A DNA stretch of 64,000 nt from Octopus vulgaris. Its lineage: Eukaryota. Each line of letters opens with the position of its first letter. Positions within the stretch are counted from its first letter, which is position 1. Made by a program: the position numbers and the translations under genes. The DNA is taken from contig OX597839.1 of the NCBI GenBank assembly GCA_951406725.2, forward strand, positions 24,428,001 through 24,492,000, written 5' to 3'. Of the stretch, positions 3,955-55,919 are shown piece by piece. The notes beneath the pieces were generated by a model, which worked only from the letters and a program-made list of their open reading frames with translations, had not been told where the DNA came from and did not search any database.

Positions 3955-4745
3955 ACCCTCCAGGGTACAAAAGTATTATTTTATGCTCTCCAGAGTTAAA
4001 AACATAGATGAAAAATCTCCAGGGTGAAAAAGGGGTTGTGTAAATCTCCAGAGTGAAAATAAAGAGGGTTTTTTTTTTATAGTCTCCATGGTGAAAAGAA
4101 GTAGTTTAACATTGTTCAGTGAAATTTTATGTGGTTTAACACATTCCAAAATAAATAGGTGTGGTTTAGCAATCTCCGGGATAGAAAGATGTATCTTGTA
4201 ATCTCCAGTGAGCAAACAAACAAGTTTTATACTCCACAATGTGTAAAGATATGGTTTAGTACTCTCCAGAGTGCAAAAATACATTTAGTCTCTCCAGAGT
4301 GCAAAAATACATTTAGTCTCTCCAATGTGCAAAGATACTTTTGGTACTCTCCAGCGTGCAAAGGTACTTTTGGTACTCTCCAGAGAATGAAAATAGTTAT
4401 TACTCTCCTGTGTGCAAAGATACACTATTTCGTCCTCTTTTGTGTACAAAGATCCATTTGGTACTCTCCAGAGTGCAAAGGTACATTATTTAGTCCTCTT
4501 TTGTGTATGAAGATAGATTTAGTCCTTTCCTGTGTGCAAACATACATATAGCACCCTCCAGTGTACAAAGGTGCTTTTGGTACTCTCCTGTGTGAAAAGA
4601 TATATTAGTTAGTCCTCTTTTGTGGATAAAGATAGATTTAGTCCTCCCCTATGTACCGAGACATTTAGCACTCTCCAGGGTGCACAAAGGTACTTTTGAT
4701 AGTCTCCAGTGTACAAAGAAAGGGTTTTGAACTCTTCAGCATGCG
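3955..4745. repeat. Degenerate ~29-bp minisatellite (TGGTACTCTCCAGAGTGCAAAG...)
   Basis: CTCTCCAG recurs at ~29-30 bp spacing; faint units extend left to ~3580. Confidence 0.8.
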
Positions 4746-9424: not shown

Positions 9425-9485
9425 TATTTTGAAGAGATATTTCTTCAATGAATATATTGTATAAAATATCATGAAACATCAAATA
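9425..9485 (+). ncRNA. Degenerate hammerhead-like motif
   Basis: TATTT TGAAGA GATATTT...AAATATC AT GAAA CA TC AAATA; C3 missing, stem III CG decayed to CA. Confidence 0.4.
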
Positions 9486-9604
9486 TTATAATTAAGTTTG
9501 AAAACAGAGAGATCCAATAGATACAAATTAATTTATTAACTGTTAATTAACCAATAAATTAATTTGTATCCATTGTATCTCTCCATTTTCAAACTTAATA
9601 ATAT
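9484..9604. repeat. AT-rich inverted repeat adjoining a hammerhead relic
   Basis: ATTAAGTTTGAAAA...ATACAAATTAATTTATT / AATAAATTAATTTGTAT...TTTTCAAACTTAAT. Confidence 0.6.
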
Positions 9605-9628
9605 ATATTTAATCTCATCATCATCATC

Positions 9629-9670
<42 letters not shown>

Positions 9671-9679
<9 letters not shown>

Positions 9680-9913
9680 TAATAGTAAGGGTTTTTTTGC
9701 AACAAGTTGCTTAAACCACGTACCGAAAATATTAGAAATATTAGAATATTCTAATATTTTCGGTATGTGGTTTAAGCAACTTTTTGCAAAAAACCCTTAC
9801 TATTATAATTATATAAATTTTTACCAAATAAGGTCCTTTTCCATACCGAAATACTACTAGGTAAAATTTGTTGATTTTATTAAATTAATTACATTTCACC
9901 CTATATCTGTATT

Positions 9914-9917
<4 letters not shown>
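9671..9917. mobile_element. Fold-back element between two (TA)n tracts
   Basis: Inverted arms ~9671-9736 and ~9750-9814, right arm extended by ~100 unique bp; (TA)n on both sides. Confidence 0.55.
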
Positions 9918-16030: not shown

Positions 16031-16259
16031 ATATTCTGTTGTGTCTGGGGAGGGTCATTCTCTTTTGGTGCCTTATATCATTTAACACACACACAGGTAA
16101 AGTTTCCACTCATTTACTTGTTTTTCTAAAATTTTCCTTGCAAGACACAATGGAAATTATAGAAAAATATATAAGTAAATGAATGGAAACTTTACCAGTG
16201 AGTGTGTTAAATGATAAGGCACTAAAAGAGAATGACCCTCTCCAGACACAGCACAATAT
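16031..16259. mobile_element. Fold-back element ending at (TA)n
   Basis: ~105-bp inverted arms (GTGTCTGGGGAGGGTCATTCTC.../...GAGAATGACCCTCTCCAGACAC) with a short spacer. Confidence 0.6.
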
Positions 16260-17383: not shown

Positions 17384-17520
17384 GTAGATGTACTTCCATA
17401 GCAAGTGACCTGATTTGAGATCGTGTGCTGGAACAAAAGCAATTGCAGCGTGGAAGGTGTTTATAAGCCATTTAAGAAATACAGAAAAACCGTTAGATTC
17501 ACTTCAACATTTAAATTTAA

Positions 17521-17571
17521 TTTGCCAAAATATTTTCAGCCCTTTGAGACTGCGACCTGTTCACTGACAAA
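17521..17571 (-). ncRNA. Hammerhead-like motif, G3:C8 core variant (left arm of palindrome)
   Basis: Minus strand TTTGTCA GTGAACA G GTCGC agtctcaaa GGGCT GAAA ATAT TT TGGCAAA; stem I intact, stem II 3' side damaged. Confidence 0.55.
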
Positions 17572-17593
17572 TTTCTGTGCTGCATCATGGAAT

Positions 17594-17644
17594 TTTGTCA
17601 GTGAACAGGTCACGGTCTCAAAGCGATGAAAATATTTGGGCAAA
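17594..17644 (+). ncRNA. Hammerhead-like motif, G3:C8 core variant (right arm of palindrome)
   Basis: TTTGTCA GTGAACA G GTCAC ggtctcaaa GCGAT GAAA ATAT TT GGGCAAA; the consensus with the left-arm copy restores stem I and stem II pairing. Confidence 0.6.
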
Positions 17645-17768
17645 TTAAATTTAAATGTTGAAGTGAATCTAACGGTTTTTGTGTGTTTCTTAAATGGCTT
17701 ATAAACACCTTCCACGCTGCAATTGTTTATATATATTGATTAAACCTCGCTAAGTTAAATATTTCAAT

Positions 17769-19068: not shown

Positions 19069-20613
19069 GAGAGAGAGACAGAGAGACAGGGATACATTAC
19101 ATATGTATGTGAGTGTGTTACTATATATATACATATGTATGCATGTAACAACATCCCAACTGGGTCTGAAAAGGAATCGGTAAATCTAATTTACTCCTAT
19201 GGTTCCACAATTGGAAATGGCATGTAAAGAATATGGTGCTGCAATCGAACAGCTCCAGAGGGATTTCTAGCAAAACCCTCATCATTGCTTTTTCTTCTTC
19301 ATTTTTTTTCCCCCCTATTTTTTTAGGTTCTATTAAACATTTATCTATTATCTCTTTAGCAGGTTTCAATCTACCCATTTCTCTGTCAGTCTGTCCGTCC
19401 ACCATTTTATTGATCAGACACCATATTACTTTCAAATCCAACTTTCAGCCTCATCTTTTCCCATATAGTTCTTTATTTACCTCACAAATTGTTTTTGTGT
19501 GTGTGTGTAGGCGCAGCCGTGGCTGTGTGTTAAAAAAACTTGCTTTCCAACCACATGGTTCTGGGTTCGGTCCCACTGCATGGCACCTTGGACGAGTGTC
19601 TTCTACTATAGCTCCAGGCTGACAAAAGCCCTGTGAATGGATTTAGTATACAGAAACTGTAAGAAGTCAGTCACATGTGCAGGGATATAGGCACCGGTGT
19701 AGGCATGTGGTAAGAAATTTGCTTCCTAACCACATGGTTTCGGGTTCAGTCCCGCTACATGGCACCTATGGCTAGTATCTTCAACTATAAGCTCAGGCTG
19801 ATCAAAGCCATGTAAGTGGATTTGGTAGATGGAAACTGAAAGACGTCCATCATTTACATATATATATATATGTAAAAAAAACACCACTTTGAGTGTGGCC
19901 GTTGCCAGTACAGCCAGACTGGCCCTCATGCCGGTGGTGCGTAAAAGCATCCACTACTCTCGGAGTGGTTGACGTTAGGAAGGGCAACCAGCTATAGAAA
20001 CTCTGCCAGATCAGATTGGAGCCTGGTGCAGCCATCGCCAGTCTTCATTCAAATCGTCCGACCCATGCTAGCATGGAAAGCGGATGTTAAATGATGATGA
20101 TGATGATGATTGATATATATATATATATATATATGATGATCATCATTTAATGTCCATTGTAGATGCATCTATATATATTTATGTGTGTGTATCTTTATGT
20201 CTGTTTGTCCCTCACTACCAGTGACTATCAGTGTTGATGTGTTTAGATCCCTGTAACTTAGCAGCTCAGCAAAAGAGACTGACAGAATAAGTACCAGGCT
20301 CAAGAAACAAAAAAAAGTACCAGGACCAATTCACCTGACTAGAAATCCAAGTCAGAGCTCCAGCATGGTCGCATCTAATAACTGAAACAAGATGAAAGCT
20401 ATCTGAGTGTGTGTGTGTGTAACTAATGTCACCTGTGCTAGTGCTACATAAAAAGCACCAAGTCCACTCGGCTGGGTGGTTGGTGTTAGGAAGAGCTGTA
20501 AAAACCCTACCAAAACAGCCACAGCATCCTAGGGTGCATGCATCGAAAATAGACATTGAATAATGGCTACATGTATATAATGGAATACTTACTATGAAGC
20601 ATTGTGTAGAATG

Positions 20614-20871
20614 TATTGTATAAAGGATCGTGGGTAAGGCCAGAACAATGCCAAGTTAATGCAAGGCAAATCACAAATAAACACATGTGAATTAATGTAG
20701 ACTTACTTTGCATTCGATATTTCAGGGTGATAAGCCCATTTTCAAGAAATTAACAAATGTTGCCCATGTGCATGGGGTCAGTCTACATTAATTCATATAC
20801 CTGTTTTCATGTGATTTGCCTTACATTTACTTCACATTGTTCTGGCCTTACCCACAATCCTTTATACAATA
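20614..20871. mobile_element. Fold-back element, Penelope pLTR-like
   Basis: Arms 20614-20703 and 20780-20871, followed by (TA)n; hammerhead in the spacer. Confidence 0.55.
20713..20748 (-). ncRNA. Minimal hammerhead-like motif, U3:A8 core
   Basis: Minus strand TTC TTGAAAA TGGG cttatca CCCT GAAA TA TC GAA; lies in the spacer of a ~90-bp-arm inverted repeat. Confidence 0.55.
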
Positions 20872-21113
20872 TATATATATTATATATATGCGTGTGTGTG
20901 TTTGTGTGTCTGTCCCCCTAGCATTGCTTGACAACTGATACTGGTGTGTGTTATGTCCCCGTTACTTAGTGGTTCGGCAAAAGAGACCGATAGAATAAGT
21001 ACTGGGCTTACAAAAGAACAAGTCCTGGGGTCGAGTTGCTCGATTGAAGGCAGTGCTCCAGCATGGCCGCAGTCAAATGACTGAAACAAGTAAAAGAGTA
21101 TATATATATATAT

Positions 21114-21574
21114 ATAATAGAAATATTAAAATAACTAAGTCTCTCTAAAAGAGAACAGCGGCAGCGTTCCCGGAAAATAATAGTTATCGCCATACTAATA
21201 TTAGTATGGCGATAACTATTATTTTCCGGGAACGCTGCCGCTGTTCTCTTTTAGAGAGACTTAGTTACTTTAATATTTCTATTATTGAAAACAAGTGGAT
21301 GTATTCCACCGAAACTAGGTAAATAAAACCATCGAACAGAGATTGTCGGAAGCGACACCTACTGGCTGGCTACGCTGCATTGAAAAGGGGCAATACTCCG
21401 AAACGCGTCTGTAGCTGCCGGTCAAGTAGTGTGGAGCGACTGACCTCCCTTGTTCGAAGGTTATATGGATACAGTTTGTGTATCAAATAGCTAACTTAAG
21501 GCGATGGCCTCATGGAGCTAATAAGCGGACAGCTTTTTTCTTATTTTTATAAGAATGCCATATTAGTATGGCGA

Positions 21575-21581
<7 letters not shown>
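21114..21581 (+). mobile_element. Non-autonomous Penelope-like/retrozyme-like element: 86-bp inverted head + 362-bp terminally redundant monomer
   Basis: Loopless palindrome 21114-21285 (one mismatch); ATATTAGTATGGCGATAACTAT repeated at 21198 and 21560; (TA)n on both sides; internal hammerhead. Confidence 0.7.
21359..21429 (+). ncRNA. Type I hammerhead ribozyme, U3:A8 core variant, extended stem I
   Basis: GCTGCA(21374-79) TTGAAAA(core 21380-86) GGGG caata CTCC (stem II) GAAA CGCG TC TGTAGC. Stem I extends GGCTGGC/GCCGGTC and CTACT/AGTAG across a TAC bulge. Cleavage triplet GUC at 21407-21409. Confidence 0.8.
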
Positions 21582-21609
<28 letters not shown>

Positions 21610-22139
21610 CTTTTAGTAAATTCCCAACATTTCTCAGTAATTTATCTCAATACCAGCATATAACTATGTCTATCTGTCTATAGCTATTTCTCCCCATTGA
21701 TCTATCCATCTGCCCAAGTCTATCAAAGTCGATCTGTCCATCTATGTCTATGTATTGAGACATCTAGATCTAACTTTACTTCCATTTCTGTCTGTCTGCC
21801 TGCCTACGTCTCTCTGTATTTGAATCTGTTTCTGTCCGTCCGTCTGTCGCTCTGCTCTTATCTTTTTTGTCTCTCTAGATGAAACAAGAGAAGTATTTAC
21901 CAATCTGTAGAACAATCTTGCTTCACCTCCATCCACAGACCCATATATCAACTGATCTATCCAACACACACACACACACACACACCAGAAACACATATAC
22001 ACACATATATACATACACACATATACATACGTATACACATACATACATGTACACATAGACATACATCATCATCATGCACCCACATGTATATACATGCATA
22101 TACACACATACATACATACACATATGCACACATACACAT

Positions 22140-22710
22140 ACCTACACTCATATATATACACATACATACACATATATATACATATATATATATACACACA
22201 CACACATACATATACACATGTACATATACACACACACACATGTACATTATAAACAAACATATATACACACACACATATACAAGGATATATACGTACACAC
22301 ATACAGATATCACACACAAATATACATACATACTCATATATATACACATACATACACATATATATACATATATATATACACACACACACATACATATACA
22401 CATACATGTACATATACACACACGTGTACATTATAAACAAACATATACACACACATACAGACATACATATACAAAGATATATACGTACACACATACACAG
22501 ATATCACACACAAATATACATACATACTCATATATACACATACATACACATATATACATATATATATATACACACACACACAAACATATACACATACATG
22601 TACATATACACACACGTGTACATTATAAACAAACATACACACACACACACACATATACAAAGACATACGTACACACATACAGATATACACACACAAATAT
22701 ACATACATAC
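22140..22710. repeat. Compound CA/TA microsatellite tandemly duplicated (~190-bp period)
   Basis: Marker TGTACATTATAAACAAACAT at 22241, 22426, 22617. Confidence 0.8.
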
Positions 22711-26653: not shown

Positions 26654-27101
26654 CTCCGGCTTTGTAGATTACATCCTCAAACGTAAAAGAAATCACTTCG
26701 TCCCCCCGTCGTAAAATGGTCCCGGTTTTGGTTTTACCATTCTTCTTGGTCGGCTGTATGATAAAGGTAATTTCCTCAGCCTCATCGCTATCCTCTCCAC
26801 TGGTAACTGGATGCCCATTCTCGGCTTTGTTTTCCTGAGATTTCCGAGTCGTTCGCTGCGAGCCCCCAGACCCATCGGTCGTCTGGTTAGAGGAGGGGCA
26901 GCTGACCGGTGGCGGCGGCAGCGGCGGTTGTGGTTGTTGCTGTTGTTGTTGTTGTTGCTGTTGTTGGCTGCTATTGCTGCTGCTACTGTTGCTGCTGCTG
27001 CTATTGTTGTTGTTGTTGTTGTTGTTACTACTGGAGTTTACCATTGAGTTGTTTTTGTTGTTATTGTTGATGTCTTGTGTATTTTTCTGATATGGCCCCA
27101 T
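26654..27101 (-). CDS. First coding exon of a probable SLC22/MFS-type transporter gene (exon 26654-27154 including 53 nt of 5'UTR; 149 codons + 1 nt, phase-1 intron follows)
   Basis: Minus-strand acceptor ttttttcttcttttgtttcAG|GTCC at 27155/27154; in-frame TAG immediately before ATG 27101; donor GGAG|GTGAGT at 26654/26653. The non-repetitive part ends ...RRGDEVISFTFEDVIYKAG(G/E...), matching the FeDvl..vGgFGrfQ N-terminal motif of SLC22/SV2-type transporters. The exon itself is well supported; the family call rests on one short motif. No next exon found in the window. Confidence 0.72.
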
Positions 27102-30905: not shown

Positions 30906-31184
30906 ATTTCTTTACTACCCACAAGGGGCCAAACAAGGACAGACAAAGGGATAAAGTAGATCATATCGACCCCAGTGCGTAACTGGTACTTATTTAATCG
31001 ACCCCAAAAGGATGAAAGGCAAAGTCGACCTCGGCGGGATTTGAACTCAGAACGTAACGGTAGACGAAATACGGCTACGCATTTCACCCTGGCGTGCTAA
31101 CGCGTAGCCGTATTTCGTCTACCGTTACGTTCTGAGTTCAAATTCCGCCAAGGTCGACTTTGCCTTTCATCCTTGAAAGGCAAA
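30906..31184 (-). mobile_element. SINE family C copy with fold-back inversion
   Basis: 30906-31101 reverse copy; 31102-31174 inverted duplicate of 31009-31080. Confidence 0.8.
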
Positions 31185-34672: not shown

Positions 34673-35272
34673 CATGATGGGCTTCTTTCACTTTCCATCT
34701 CCCAAATCCACTCACATGGCTTTGGTCAGCCCAAGGCCACAGTAAAAAACATTTGCCCAAGGTACCACACAGTAGGACTGAACCGTGAACCATGTGGTTG
34801 GGAGACCAGCTTCTTACCACAAGACTATGCCTGCGTCTATACATATATACAGCGGTAATTATGCTTTCAGAATATCACTATTTGGTTGGTCTTCATTATT
34901 ACAACTTGTACACAACTGACTGGGCTTGACTCCACTTATGCGGATACCCTTACAACAATTTCGAGTGGATTGTTACACTTGATTCAAGTAGAAAATCCTG
35001 GTACTGTGCAACCACTTCTGAGCATAAACACAAAACAGACATACATGAGTGTGTGTGTGTGTGTATGCGCGTGTGTGTATGCATACACATGGTTCCAGGT
35101 TCAGTCCCACAGCACGGCACCTTCAGCAAATGTCTTCTACTATAGCCTCAAGCTGACCAAAGCCTTGTGAGTGGATTTGGTAGACAGAAACTAAAAGAGA
35201 TTCATATATATGTGTGTGTGTGTGTGTCTATATATATAAATATATATATATACATGGCCCAGAACATATATA

Positions 35273-43919: not shown

Positions 43920-43966
<47 letters not shown>

Positions 43967-44388
43967 CCCCCTAGCATTGCTTGACAACCGATGCTGATGT
44001 GTTTATGTCCCCGTCACTTAGCGGAATAAGTACTGGGCTTACAAAGAATAAGTCGCGGGGTCAAGTTGCTCGATTAAAGGTGGTGCTCCAGCATGGCCGC
44101 AGACAAATGACTGAACCAAGTAAAAAAGAGTAAAAAAAAAAAGAGTATACACACACACTGGATGATAGATACTATATACATATATTCTTTTATTCTTTTA
44201 CTTGTTTCAGTCATTTGACTGCAGCCATGCTGGAGCACCGCCTTTAGTCAAACATTTCAACCCCAGAATTTATTCTTTGTAAGCATAGTACTTATTCTAT
44301 CAGTCTCTTTTGCCGAACTACTAAGTTACGGAGACATAAACACACCAGCATCAGTTGTCAAGTGATGTTGGGGGTGGTGGACAAACAC

Positions 44389-44457
<69 letters not shown>

Positions 44458-48372: not shown

Positions 48373-48404
<32 letters not shown>

Positions 48405-48407
<3 letters not shown>

Positions 48408-49165
48408 AGTGAAAGAGAGAGAAAGGGAAATAGAGACGTGAGTGGGGAAACATGGCAAAGCTCAGTAGAAATCCCTAAACTTAAGAGGAGCTAGGAACAC
48501 GTGTGTGTGTGTGTGCGTATACATATATATAAACGCGTCTGTGTGTATAGACGTGTCTGTATGCATGTATATAAACGTGTGTGTGTGTGTGAGTGAAAGA
48601 GAGAAAGGGAATTAGAGACGTGAATGGGGAAACATGGCAAAGCTCAGTAGAAATCCCTGAACTTAAAAGAGGAGCTAGAAACACACGTGTGTGTGTGTGT
48701 GTATGTGCGCGTATGCATGTATATAAACGCGTCTGTGTGTATATACGTGTCTGTATGCATGTATATAAATGTGTGTGTGTGTGTGTGAGTGAAAGAGAGA
48801 GAAAGGGAAATAGAGACGTGAATGGAGAAACATGGCAAAGCTCAGTAGAAATCCCTGAACTTAAAAGAGGAGCTAGGAAACACACGTGTGTGTGTGTGTG
48901 TGTGCGCGTATGCATGTATATAAACGCGTCTGTGTGTATATACGTGTCTGTATGCATGTATATAAATGTGTGTGTGTGTGTGTGTGAGTGAAAGAGAGAG
49001 AAAGGGAAATAGAGACGTGAATGGAGAAACATGGCAAGGCTCAGTAGAAATCCCTAAACGTAAAAGAGGAGCTAGGAACACACGTGTGTGTGTGTGTGTG
49101 TGTATGCATGTATATAAACGCGTCTGTATGTGTGTGTGTGTGCATAAGTGTGAGATAAGGAAATA
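48405..49165. repeat. ~185-200-bp tandem repeat, 4 copies
   Basis: GAGTGAAAGAGAGA...AAACATGGCAAAGCTCAGTAGAAATCCCT...GAGGAGCTAG at ~48405, 48589, 48785, 48984. Confidence 0.9.
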
Positions 49166-50339: not shown

Positions 50340-50349
50340 AGGAACAGTT

Positions 50350-50387
<38 letters not shown>

Positions 50388-50516
50388 TATCTGGGTGTGA
50401 GTGTGTATAGACATATATACACACACATACACAAACACACACTTATACACAAACACATACACCTATATACACACTTTTTATACAAGGTAATCTGTCCAAG
50501 CATGTATACATATATT

Positions 50517-50547
<31 letters not shown>

Positions 50548-50695
50548 CCGGGTGTGTGTGTATAGACATATATACACATACAAACACACCTATATACACA
50601 CATACACACCTATATACATACATATACACAAACACATACACCTATATACACACTTTTTATACAAAGTAGTCTGTCCAAGCATGTATACATATATT

Positions 50696-50733
<38 letters not shown>

Positions 50734-51081
50734 GATATGTGTGTGTGTGTATAGACATATATACACACACATATACAAACACACATACATATACACACAC
50801 AAACACATACACCTATATACACACTTTTTAAACAAGGTAAATCTGTCCAAGCATGTATACATACATATATAGCAAACAGTTTGTGAATGTATATTTACAC
50901 AGAAAGCTGTTTATACACACACCAAAATTGTTTAGACATTATATACACACACACACACATAGTAAGCTGCTTAAATATCCATGAATTGTTTATACATGTA
51001 TAAACAAATTATTTATACACAGTGTTAACACATATACACTCAGTGTTTATACACAAGTATATACATGCAGGTATATGTATG

Positions 51082-51119
<38 letters not shown>

Positions 51120-51524
51120 CACACGTATACACATTGTTTATACATAAGTATTAATACATACATAAGTTGTTTATACATAAAACATAAGCAGCATCATATA
51201 TAATCTATACAGCGTGTATATAGACATATATACACACACATACACATATACACACCTATATACACACATACACCTATATACATACATATACACAAACACA
51301 TACACCTATATCCACACTTTTTATACAAGGTAATATGTCCAAGCATGTATACATATATATATATACACACACACACATATCTGGGTGTGTGTGTGTATAG
51401 ACATATATACACACACATACACAAACACACCTATATACACACATACACCTATATACACAAACACATACACCTATATCCACACTTTTTATACAAGGTAATA
51501 TGTCCAAGCATGTATACATATATT

Positions 51525-51556
<32 letters not shown>

Positions 51557-51654
51557 TATCTGGGTGTGTGTATAGACACATACACAAACACATCTATATA
51601 CACACATACACCTATATACACACTTTTTATACAAGGTAATATGTCCAAGCATGT

Positions 51655-51702
<48 letters not shown>

Positions 51703-51845
51703 CTGGGTGTGTGTGTATAGACATATATACATACACAAACACACCTATATACATACATCACTTATATACATACATATACACAAACACACACCTATATACA
51801 CACTTTTTATACAAGGTAATATGTCCAAGCATGTATACATATATA
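50340..51845. repeat. Compound microsatellite tandem arrays (~140-180-bp period)
   Basis: Marker CACTTTTT..ACAAGGTAAT..TGTCCAAGCATG occurs 7 times. Confidence 0.85.
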
Positions 51846-55077: not shown

Positions 55078-55919
55078 GTATAAATGTATGTGTGTTCCAG
55101 ATGAAATGAAAAAAACAAAACGAAACAAAAGCCGTTTAATTTGCATATACATACCTACATCTTATATTCATATACACACACATGAATAAACATATATTCA
55201 CACATACGTACACATACATATACACACAAACACACATATATATATATACTCATAAATACATTCACACACAGACGTACACTCACATATTCATATCAATACA
55301 CATTCACATATAGATACACACACACATACATATATATATATATTCTTATAAATATACACACACACACAATTATATATGCACATCTACACACATTCACATA
55401 TAGATACACACACACACACATACATACATATATATATATTCTTATAAATACACACACACACACACATACACAATTATATATACACATCTACACACACAGA
55501 TGAATAAGGAACCAGGAGCAAACAAAAAAAGGGGAATCGAGTGGAAGAAAAAAAAGGGACCCGCCAGTGCTTGCTCGATACAGAACCATAAATAAAACAC
55601 GTTAAGTCTAAACAATTTACAGGACAACATACATATATAGATATAGATATACACACACATATATATATCATAATATCGTATAGTATATCATATATATGTG
55701 GTATATTATAGGGGTGAGACGGCGTGGTTTTGTTGTAAACGGGTAGCAAAAGATCAACAGTGAGAGGAGATGGTGGCACTTACTCAGATCATAGCAACAC
55801 AAAGCAACCAAGTTTGTCCAAAGTACACCTATTCAACTTTATATTGCCCGAAGGAGACACAAAAACATACAGGCTGACAGCCATTGTGACAGAGGAAGGA
55901 ATAGTAAACAGCAGCAGCA

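Follow-up and report, generated by a model that had tools for sequence, protein, structure and literature searches.

The insert at positions 21114-21581 of the analysed window, a 64,000-nt stretch of the Octopus vulgaris genome, was interpreted, with a probability of about 0.7, as a young, non-autonomous Penelope-like element (PLE) copy of the non-LTR retrozyme type, built on a 362-nt ORF-less unit that bears a predicted hammerhead ribozyme. Both the retrozyme class and the PLE architecture have already been described; the insert itself carries an uncommon ribozyme variant. In PLE terms, it consists of an inverted part (66-nt tail plus terminal repeat), a direct part (repeat, tail, and the rest of the unit), and one further repeat. 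It amounts to 1.06 units with one ribozyme and stands solo in the 64 kb. The coordinates of all features are listed in Table 1.

Table 1. Features of the insert and its flanks, in positions of the 64,000-nt window.
Feature	Position	Strand	Description
SINE-like host repeat	20940-21098	(+)	3' end runs into the (TA)n target; context, outside the element
Left (TA)n target tract	21099-21116 (18 nt)	.	final 3 nt shared with the outer end of the head
Inverted head	21114-21199	(-)	reverse copy of 21200-21285; 66-nt tail (21114-21179) and terminal repeat (21180-21199)
Loopless inversion junction	21198-21201	.	self-complementary 4-nt overlap common to both orientations
362-nt unit	21198-21559	(+)	42% GC, non-coding, strongly structured as RNA
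Terminal repeat, copy 1	21198-21219	(+)	equivalent of a 5'-truncated pLTR
66-nt tail	21220-21285	(+)	span between the two inferred priming sites
Type I hammerhead, predicted	21364-21423	(+)	descriptor match, pair probabilities, dimer co-fold
Hammerhead helix I	21374-79/21410-15	(+)	6 bp; internal loop, then 7-bp distal helix (21364-70/21417-23)
Hammerhead core	21380-86	(+)	U3 = 21380, A8 = 21385
Hammerhead helix II	21387-90/21396-99	(+)	4 bp
Hammerhead G12-A14	21400-02	(+)	conserved core
Hammerhead helix III	21403-08	(+)	palindromic
Predicted hammerhead cut	21409|21410	(+)	sequence-based prediction
6-bp hairpin / 16-nt quasi-palindrome	21557-21572	(+)	spans the unit junction 21559|21560
Terminal repeat, copy 2	21560-21581	(+)	insert 3' end; 3-nt overlap with the right (TA)n
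Right (TA)n target tract	21579-21607 (29 nt)	.	overlaps the insert end by 3 nt

The arms of the inverted repeat, 21114-21199 and 21200-21285, adjoin with a 0-nt spacer and can pair at 85 of 86 positions, the sole mismatch being A at 21131 against C at 21268; the repeat cannot be extended outward. The terminal repeat is a 22-mer that is identical in both direct copies (22/22) at a spacing of 362 nt, unextendable on either side, and readable both at 21198-21219 (+) and at 21201-21180 (-). Under a base-composition model, the chance expectation was 1.7e-8 for a 22-mer pair within 468 nt and 1e-43 for an 86-bp palindrome in 64 kb. A preliminary description of this DNA had reported the loopless 86-bp head with one mismatch, the recurrence of the 22-mer, the (TA)n tracts on both sides, and the lack of an ORF, and all four observations were confirmed; in the circularised unit, the longest ATG ORF was 38 aa and the longest stop-free run was 55 aa. 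With one mismatch per 86 positions in the arms and 0 of 22 in the repeat, the insertion is young.

The two outer ends of the insert do not mirror each other. On the left, the inverted terminal repeat lies 66 nt inward, so that the outer ends have no TIRs, and a target-site duplication is unreadable within (TA)n. The 7-nt motif CTATTAT occurs in two copies in the 362-nt unit (starts 21216 and 21279) and nowhere else in it; both outer ends stop at these copies, with a 3-nt overlap into (TA)n. Four of the 13 distinct TAT sites in the unit fall inside CTATTAT, the coincidence with the motif having been noticed post hoc. A second copy of the insert body was not found in the 64-kb window by blastn or nhmmer.

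The hammerhead, absent from the preliminary description, was predicted in the middle of the unit, where the 3-8 pair, G12-A13-A14, A15.1-U16.1, and H17 required of the core are all present, with U3-A8 in place of C3-G8. The descriptor, which allowed covariation at core positions 3 and 8 and was composed after the motif had been noticed, gave two matches on both strands of the window, 21380 (+) in the unit and 17564 (-), and none in 2000 shuffles of the unit. The match at 17564 (-) sits in a fold-back element (17437-17728) and was taken as chance. The insert carries its hammerhead on one strand only. Pair probabilities of helices I and II were 0.91-1.0 in the whole unit, linear as well as circular, and the minimum-energy form in a co-fold of two copies was a double hammerhead (-49.7 kcal/mol) with an intermolecular helix III of 6 bp. 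Helix I, with its internal loop facing a short loop 2, gives the motif an apparent likeness to Sm-alpha of Schistosoma mansoni.

No Rfam matches were obtained in the whole window at the gathering threshold or in the hammerhead region alone (131 nt) at E 10. A search of 20900-21800 at E 10 returned 25 matches, none to a hammerhead family and all under the gathering score; these were mostly miRNA/sRNA hairpin models on the palindrome and were dismissed as shape matches. The motif is therefore a hammerhead by descriptor and not an Rfam family member, and the variant U3-A8 core is the likely cause of the Rfam miss. U3-A8 is a natural covariation, reported as active in vitro (PMC3088659) and present in ribozymes of Schistosoma PLEs (PMC4209133). 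Comparable hammerheads of Schistosoma mansoni, namely Sm-alpha and the minimal U3-A8 ribozymes of the Cercyon PLEs, share with the insert the type I topology and, in the Cercyon case, the covariation (PMC4209133). The Schistosoma U3-A8 motifs were found by a minimal-ribozyme descriptor, whose families have a long helix II and a short helix I (PMC4209133), whereas the hammerhead of the insert has a helix I of 6+7 bp and a helix II of 4 bp. These helix sizes fit the 'canonical' metazoan type, the one carried by retrozymes, and not the minimal type (types as in PMC4209133).

The unit had folding z scores of -5.2 (linear) and -5.9 (circular), with 0 of 60 shuffles as stable, and the strongest structure lay around the ribozyme (21326-21465, z -6.1). 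Its predicted fold is branched, 63% paired, and leaves the ribozyme free, which is the description given for metazoan retrozymes (PMC7229834). A predicted three-way junction spans 21285|21286. The fold across this point was reached by 12 of 1000 (local) and 2 of 150 (whole) shuffled arms and ranked 3 of 234 alternative joins, which modestly suggests that the join is native; the cross-junction hairpin is AU-rich. The inversion join falls in the position equivalent to the hairpin at 21557-21572. Pairing of the latter segment with a second copy was calculated at -23.6 kcal/mol, against -5.7 as a hairpin. The quasi-palindrome might possibly serve for RNA dimerisation or as an RT stop site. The reading as a retrozyme or Penelope product, put forward in the preliminary description, is supported by the type I hammerhead in mid-unit, the strong structure, and the PLE-like head, tail, and (TA)n.

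Retrozymes are short non-coding repeats with type I hammerheads, whose circles are known in coral, mussel, and axolotl, and for which PLEs have been proposed as helpers; the mussel units measure about 350-390 bp (PMC7229834). A 2026 preprint by Li et al. ties them to PLE pLTRs (10.64898/2026.07.22.740005). Like the insert, metazoan non-LTR retrozymes are non-coding, 150-450 nt in length, and of GC < 50% (Cervera and de la Pena 2020, PMC7229834; 10.64898/2026.07.22.740005), and they have one type I hammerhead of canonical size per unit, a short palindromic helix III, and a stable branched fold. Mobilisation by PLEs has been proposed for them, and solo monomer copies, as here, are common. The insert differs in its U3-A8 core and in its layout, 1.06 units standing alone with an inverted head and a tail in the manner of PLEs; the available parts of those two reports do not describe this layout, nor do they name cephalopods. 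The insert was seen as one copy in the window; tandem arrays and circular RNA are features described for the metazoan retrozymes.

Direct terminal repeats with an adjacent head-to-head inverted copy are likewise found in EN+ PLEs (Pen2a_Av, PMC3846280; PMC8557442; Poseidon of Anolis, PMC11167929), which also share with the insert the tail on the inverted copy, the overlap at the join, a hammerhead near the 3' end, and an AT-rich target. In Adineta, Pen2a combines a pair of direct pLTRs with a neighbouring inverted one that has a tail and an overlap at the join, and pLTRs alone were enough to move a host gene in trans (PMC3846280). An inverted 5'-truncated copy, a tail of 30-40 nt, and (TA)n targeting were described for PLEs by Craig et al. 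(PMC8557442). The insert is distinguished from EN+ PLEs by the lack of an ORF, a unit of 362 nt compared with 2-4 kb, a tail of 66 nt compared with 30-40, and a direct repeat of only 22 nt. The Naiad and Hydra PLEs, octopus families included, target (TA)n, and the cephalopod Naiads are old remnants without canonical ribozymes (PMC8557442). Hydra-1_Obim, Naiad_Obim, and Naiad_Ovul come from the same genus as the insert and have the same (TA)n target, and in Hydra the hammerhead lies about 100 nt from the 3' end (PMC8557442 supplement). In Hydra-1_Obim, the ribozyme core is C3-G8 and helix III is longer, unlike the U3-A8 motif of the insert. Hydra-1_Obim was rejected as the parent: its first bases resemble those that follow the terminal repeat, but the ribozyme and the 3' end differ (by eye). 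Similarity of the insert ends to either end of Hydra-1_Obim or to the start of Naiad_Obim was not seen by eye, and one 10-nt motif of the insert was absent from the accessible part of the PMC8557442 supplement.

The proposed course of the insertion starts from a tandem source locus elsewhere, which would be transcribed into RNA whose hammerheads could cut as dimers and may release circularising unit RNAs. A PLE RT/GIY-YIG protein acting in trans would then cut both strands of a (TA)n tract, and each end so produced would pair over 3 nt with the RNA and prime there, at one or the other of the two CUAUUAU sites (66 nt apart). One of the resulting cDNAs would measure 384 nt, or 1.06 units, and would traverse the ribozyme site in its intact state; the other would measure 86 nt, and both would stop within the same self-complementary hairpin (21557-21572 and its equivalent). 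Joining of their 3' ends at the 4-nt palindrome, followed by filling in, would produce the loopless head-to-head repeat. In the only PLE system of its kind studied in vitro, purified protein from the anole cut both strands of the target and extended them. Synthesis began at a pair of neighbouring internal RNA positions, the distance between which is the tail; ribozyme cutting was not required, and uncut RNA served as the main template (PMC11167929).

The copy has only one ribozyme and therefore cannot itself release unit RNA. The predicted cut site coincides with neither end of the insert; the template was therefore not a cut linear monomer, and a circle and a linear tandem are indistinguishable as templates at this locus. 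The phrase 'copy of a circular or tandem RNA' in the preliminary description is an interpretation and not an observation. A linear tandem yields the same 1.06-unit copy as a circle. A linear tandem transcript is the somewhat more probable template, and a circle is a substantial alternative. Several points weigh against the proposed explanation as a whole: the element is single-copy in the window, with no tandem arrays or permuted copies there; its 66-nt tail exceeds the published 30-40 nt (PMC8557442); priming by the anole PLE needed no target homology (PMC11167929); and only one of nine predicted Xenopus retrozyme dimers was cleaved in vitro (10.64898/2026.07.22.740005).

Granted the same 362-nt element, the head could also have formed from one cDNA that folded back after 1.06 rounds of a circle, as the preliminary description had supposed; we regard this as a possible but disfavoured origin. 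The arms are near-identical, the join lies inside the self-complementary hairpin region, self-priming has been proposed for PLE palindromes (PMC3846280), and circle-templated copying of more than a unit has been proposed for PLEs and retrozymes (PMC4209133, PMC7229834). However, fold-back at the available hairpin should leave a 4-nt loop with a centre 3 nt away, whereas the actual join has no loop; the head's outer end resembles a priming site, with the same motif and target overlap as the far end; and extension of both strands has been shown in vitro (PMC11167929). Two target-primed cDNAs joined head-to-head fit better, and priming from both cut target strands is favoured over simple fold-back because both outer ends stop at the sole CTATTAT copies with a 3-nt (TA)n overlap. 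The main rival reading dispenses with the 362-nt unit and takes 21286-21581 as the 5'-truncated 3' end of an autonomous PLE (a pLTR with its ribozyme) and the 86-nt head as a second cDNA (repeat plus tail) that snapped back, copied itself, and was then joined. It draws on the 5' truncation and inverted 5'-truncated copies usual in PLEs (PMC8557442), on the interpretation of palindromes at PLE inverted junctions as self-priming (PMC3846280), and on the second insert at 9676-9916, which shares the head geometry without terminal redundancy or ribozyme and whose direct arm has about 6 TA-like bases, possibly copied flank. This reading is nevertheless unlikely: the snap-back must end within 3 nt of the target junction (<= 3 nt), the predicted three-way junction crosses 21285|21286 (12/1000 shuffles, rank 3 of 234), an ORF remnant is absent from the 296 nt, and the ribozyme helices are canonical, not minimal.

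An origin at the DNA level (a MITE of the fold-back type, or template switching during repair or replication at (TA)n, beside an unrelated ribozyme-like stretch) or else an assembly artefact was considered very improbable. Fold-back MITE-like elements are common in the window, and misassembly can affect long palindromes next to microsatellites. Against these, the outer ends are not mutual inverted repeats, the palindrome centre recurs 362 nt away (1.7e-8 by chance), the unit contains a ribozyme and strong RNA structure, and the one arm mismatch speaks against a pure read artefact. Least credible of all is that PLE machinery reverse-transcribed, and so captured, a viroid-like circular RNA from outside the genome. 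The size, structure, and ribozyme of the insert are viroid-like and it is single-copy in the window, but the ribozyme is confined to one strand, the branched fold with 63% of bases paired and the ribozyme free is that of metazoan retrozymes, and the insert had no blastn match among phages, nor one exact 22-nt pattern from it any occurrence (0) among prokaryotic genomes.

A possible protein partner was sought among the 236 window ORFs of at least 60 aa and high complexity, and no RT or GIY-YIG family (Pfam) was found in any of them (236/236); the few matches were weak and unrelated, with one over the cut-off (GLTT repeat). The tRNA scan gave 0 hits. A scan for bacterial promoters and terminators, unsuited to animal DNA, re-found three hairpins only, and Pol III boxes with a TATA-like motif at about 21546-21553, noted by eye, stand in the wrong order or spacing. 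A description of the element was not found in the literature on octopus hammerheads, O. bimaculoides Penelope, or Penelope palindromes, template switching, and twin priming, a scope that lay outside Repbase, Dfam, and most subscription papers. For O. vulgaris, 190 PLE families, 31 of them recently active, have been reported; the available text of that report makes no mention of ribozymes, and the available part of its supplement none of hammerheads or retrozymes (PMC13282606). The giant squid genome has 235 Rfam hammerheads, listed without analysis (PMC6962438). Four further papers (PMC6155905, PMC8967140, PMC7151607, and PMC6765202) provided, in the parts available, general background only.

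The transposition cycle of PLEs is still open with respect to the origin of the tail, the inverted pLTRs, and the role of the ribozyme, and the claim that PLE proteins move retrozymes has so far drawn on their co-occurrence and on sequence kinship. An ORF-less ribozyme unit with the full PLE insertion signature would, given confirmation of the 362-nt unit, be direct structural evidence for the link between PLEs and retrozymes. More tentatively, the insert may represent an undescribed active octopus retrozyme family that makes a 362-nt circular RNA and has U3-A8 hammerheads overlooked by Rfam and by C3-G8 descriptors. Its insertions would be two-primer PLE events at two fixed CUAUUAU sites, both cDNAs stopping in the self-complementary hairpin; we hold this reading to be doubtful on present grounds. 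Were it true, the circle template and the formation of PLE tails and head-to-head inversions could be tested genome-wide on the many short, young copies. Rfam-based counts of cephalopod ribozymes, such as the 235 in giant squid, are suggested to miss U3-A8 families. The single locus alone changes the picture little.

Two exons of a RERE/atrophin-like gene lie in the window, at 26655-27101 (-), encoding part of the protein, and at 55782-55826 (-). They matched O. vulgaris isoform X3 at 100% across two exons (residues 5-19 and 22-97), and the O. bimaculoides protein was matched at 96.7% (152 aligned residues), with differences from the latter in the N- and Q-rich runs. These matches point to an Octopus as the host, probably O. 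vulgaris or one of its close relatives. The next RERE exon was not found in the window at >= 80% identity, and the insert site is therefore probably an intron of RERE. The ribozyme strand of the insert is antisense to the gene. On the host-gene strand, the palindrome 21114-21285 folds at -143 kcal/mol; the host pre-mRNA would contain the corresponding 172-nt hairpin, a possible dsRNA substrate for editing or small-RNA pathways.

The SINE-like host repeat left of the insert had 31 blastn matches in the window, itself included; the other near-full-length copies were 70-93% identical, and several are followed by (TA)n. A second insert, also flanked by (TA)n tracts, occupies 9676-9916. Its inverted head measures about 70 nt (91% identity) and has a loopless centre at 9747|9748; the central hexamer and the final 5 nt are those of the main element, the left arm contains a duplication of 9 nt, and the terminal repeat and ribozyme are absent. 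It probably represents an older insertion of PLE type. Immediately downstream of where the arm ends, it shows a weak likeness to the main element (a score as high was reached by 27 of 1000 shuffles and by 2 of 361 real windows), which is insufficient to call the two related.

Other repeats in the window include a MITE-like fold-back element at 17437-17728, with 139-bp arms (about 17437-17575 and 17590-17728) and a short spacer, and, 240 nt to the left of the insert, a MITE-like element at 20611-20874 whose terminal inverted repeats are 73 nt long (88%). High-scoring inverted repeats between (TA)n tracts were also found at 9478-9613 (arms of about 60 nt), 16037-16253, 31008-31174, 34684-34796, and 43947-44400. 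Minisatellites derived from simple repeats occupy 22109-22710 (period about 192 nt), 48390-49131 (about 199 nt), 50348-51770 (about 141-179 nt), and 4198-4719 (about 29 nt).
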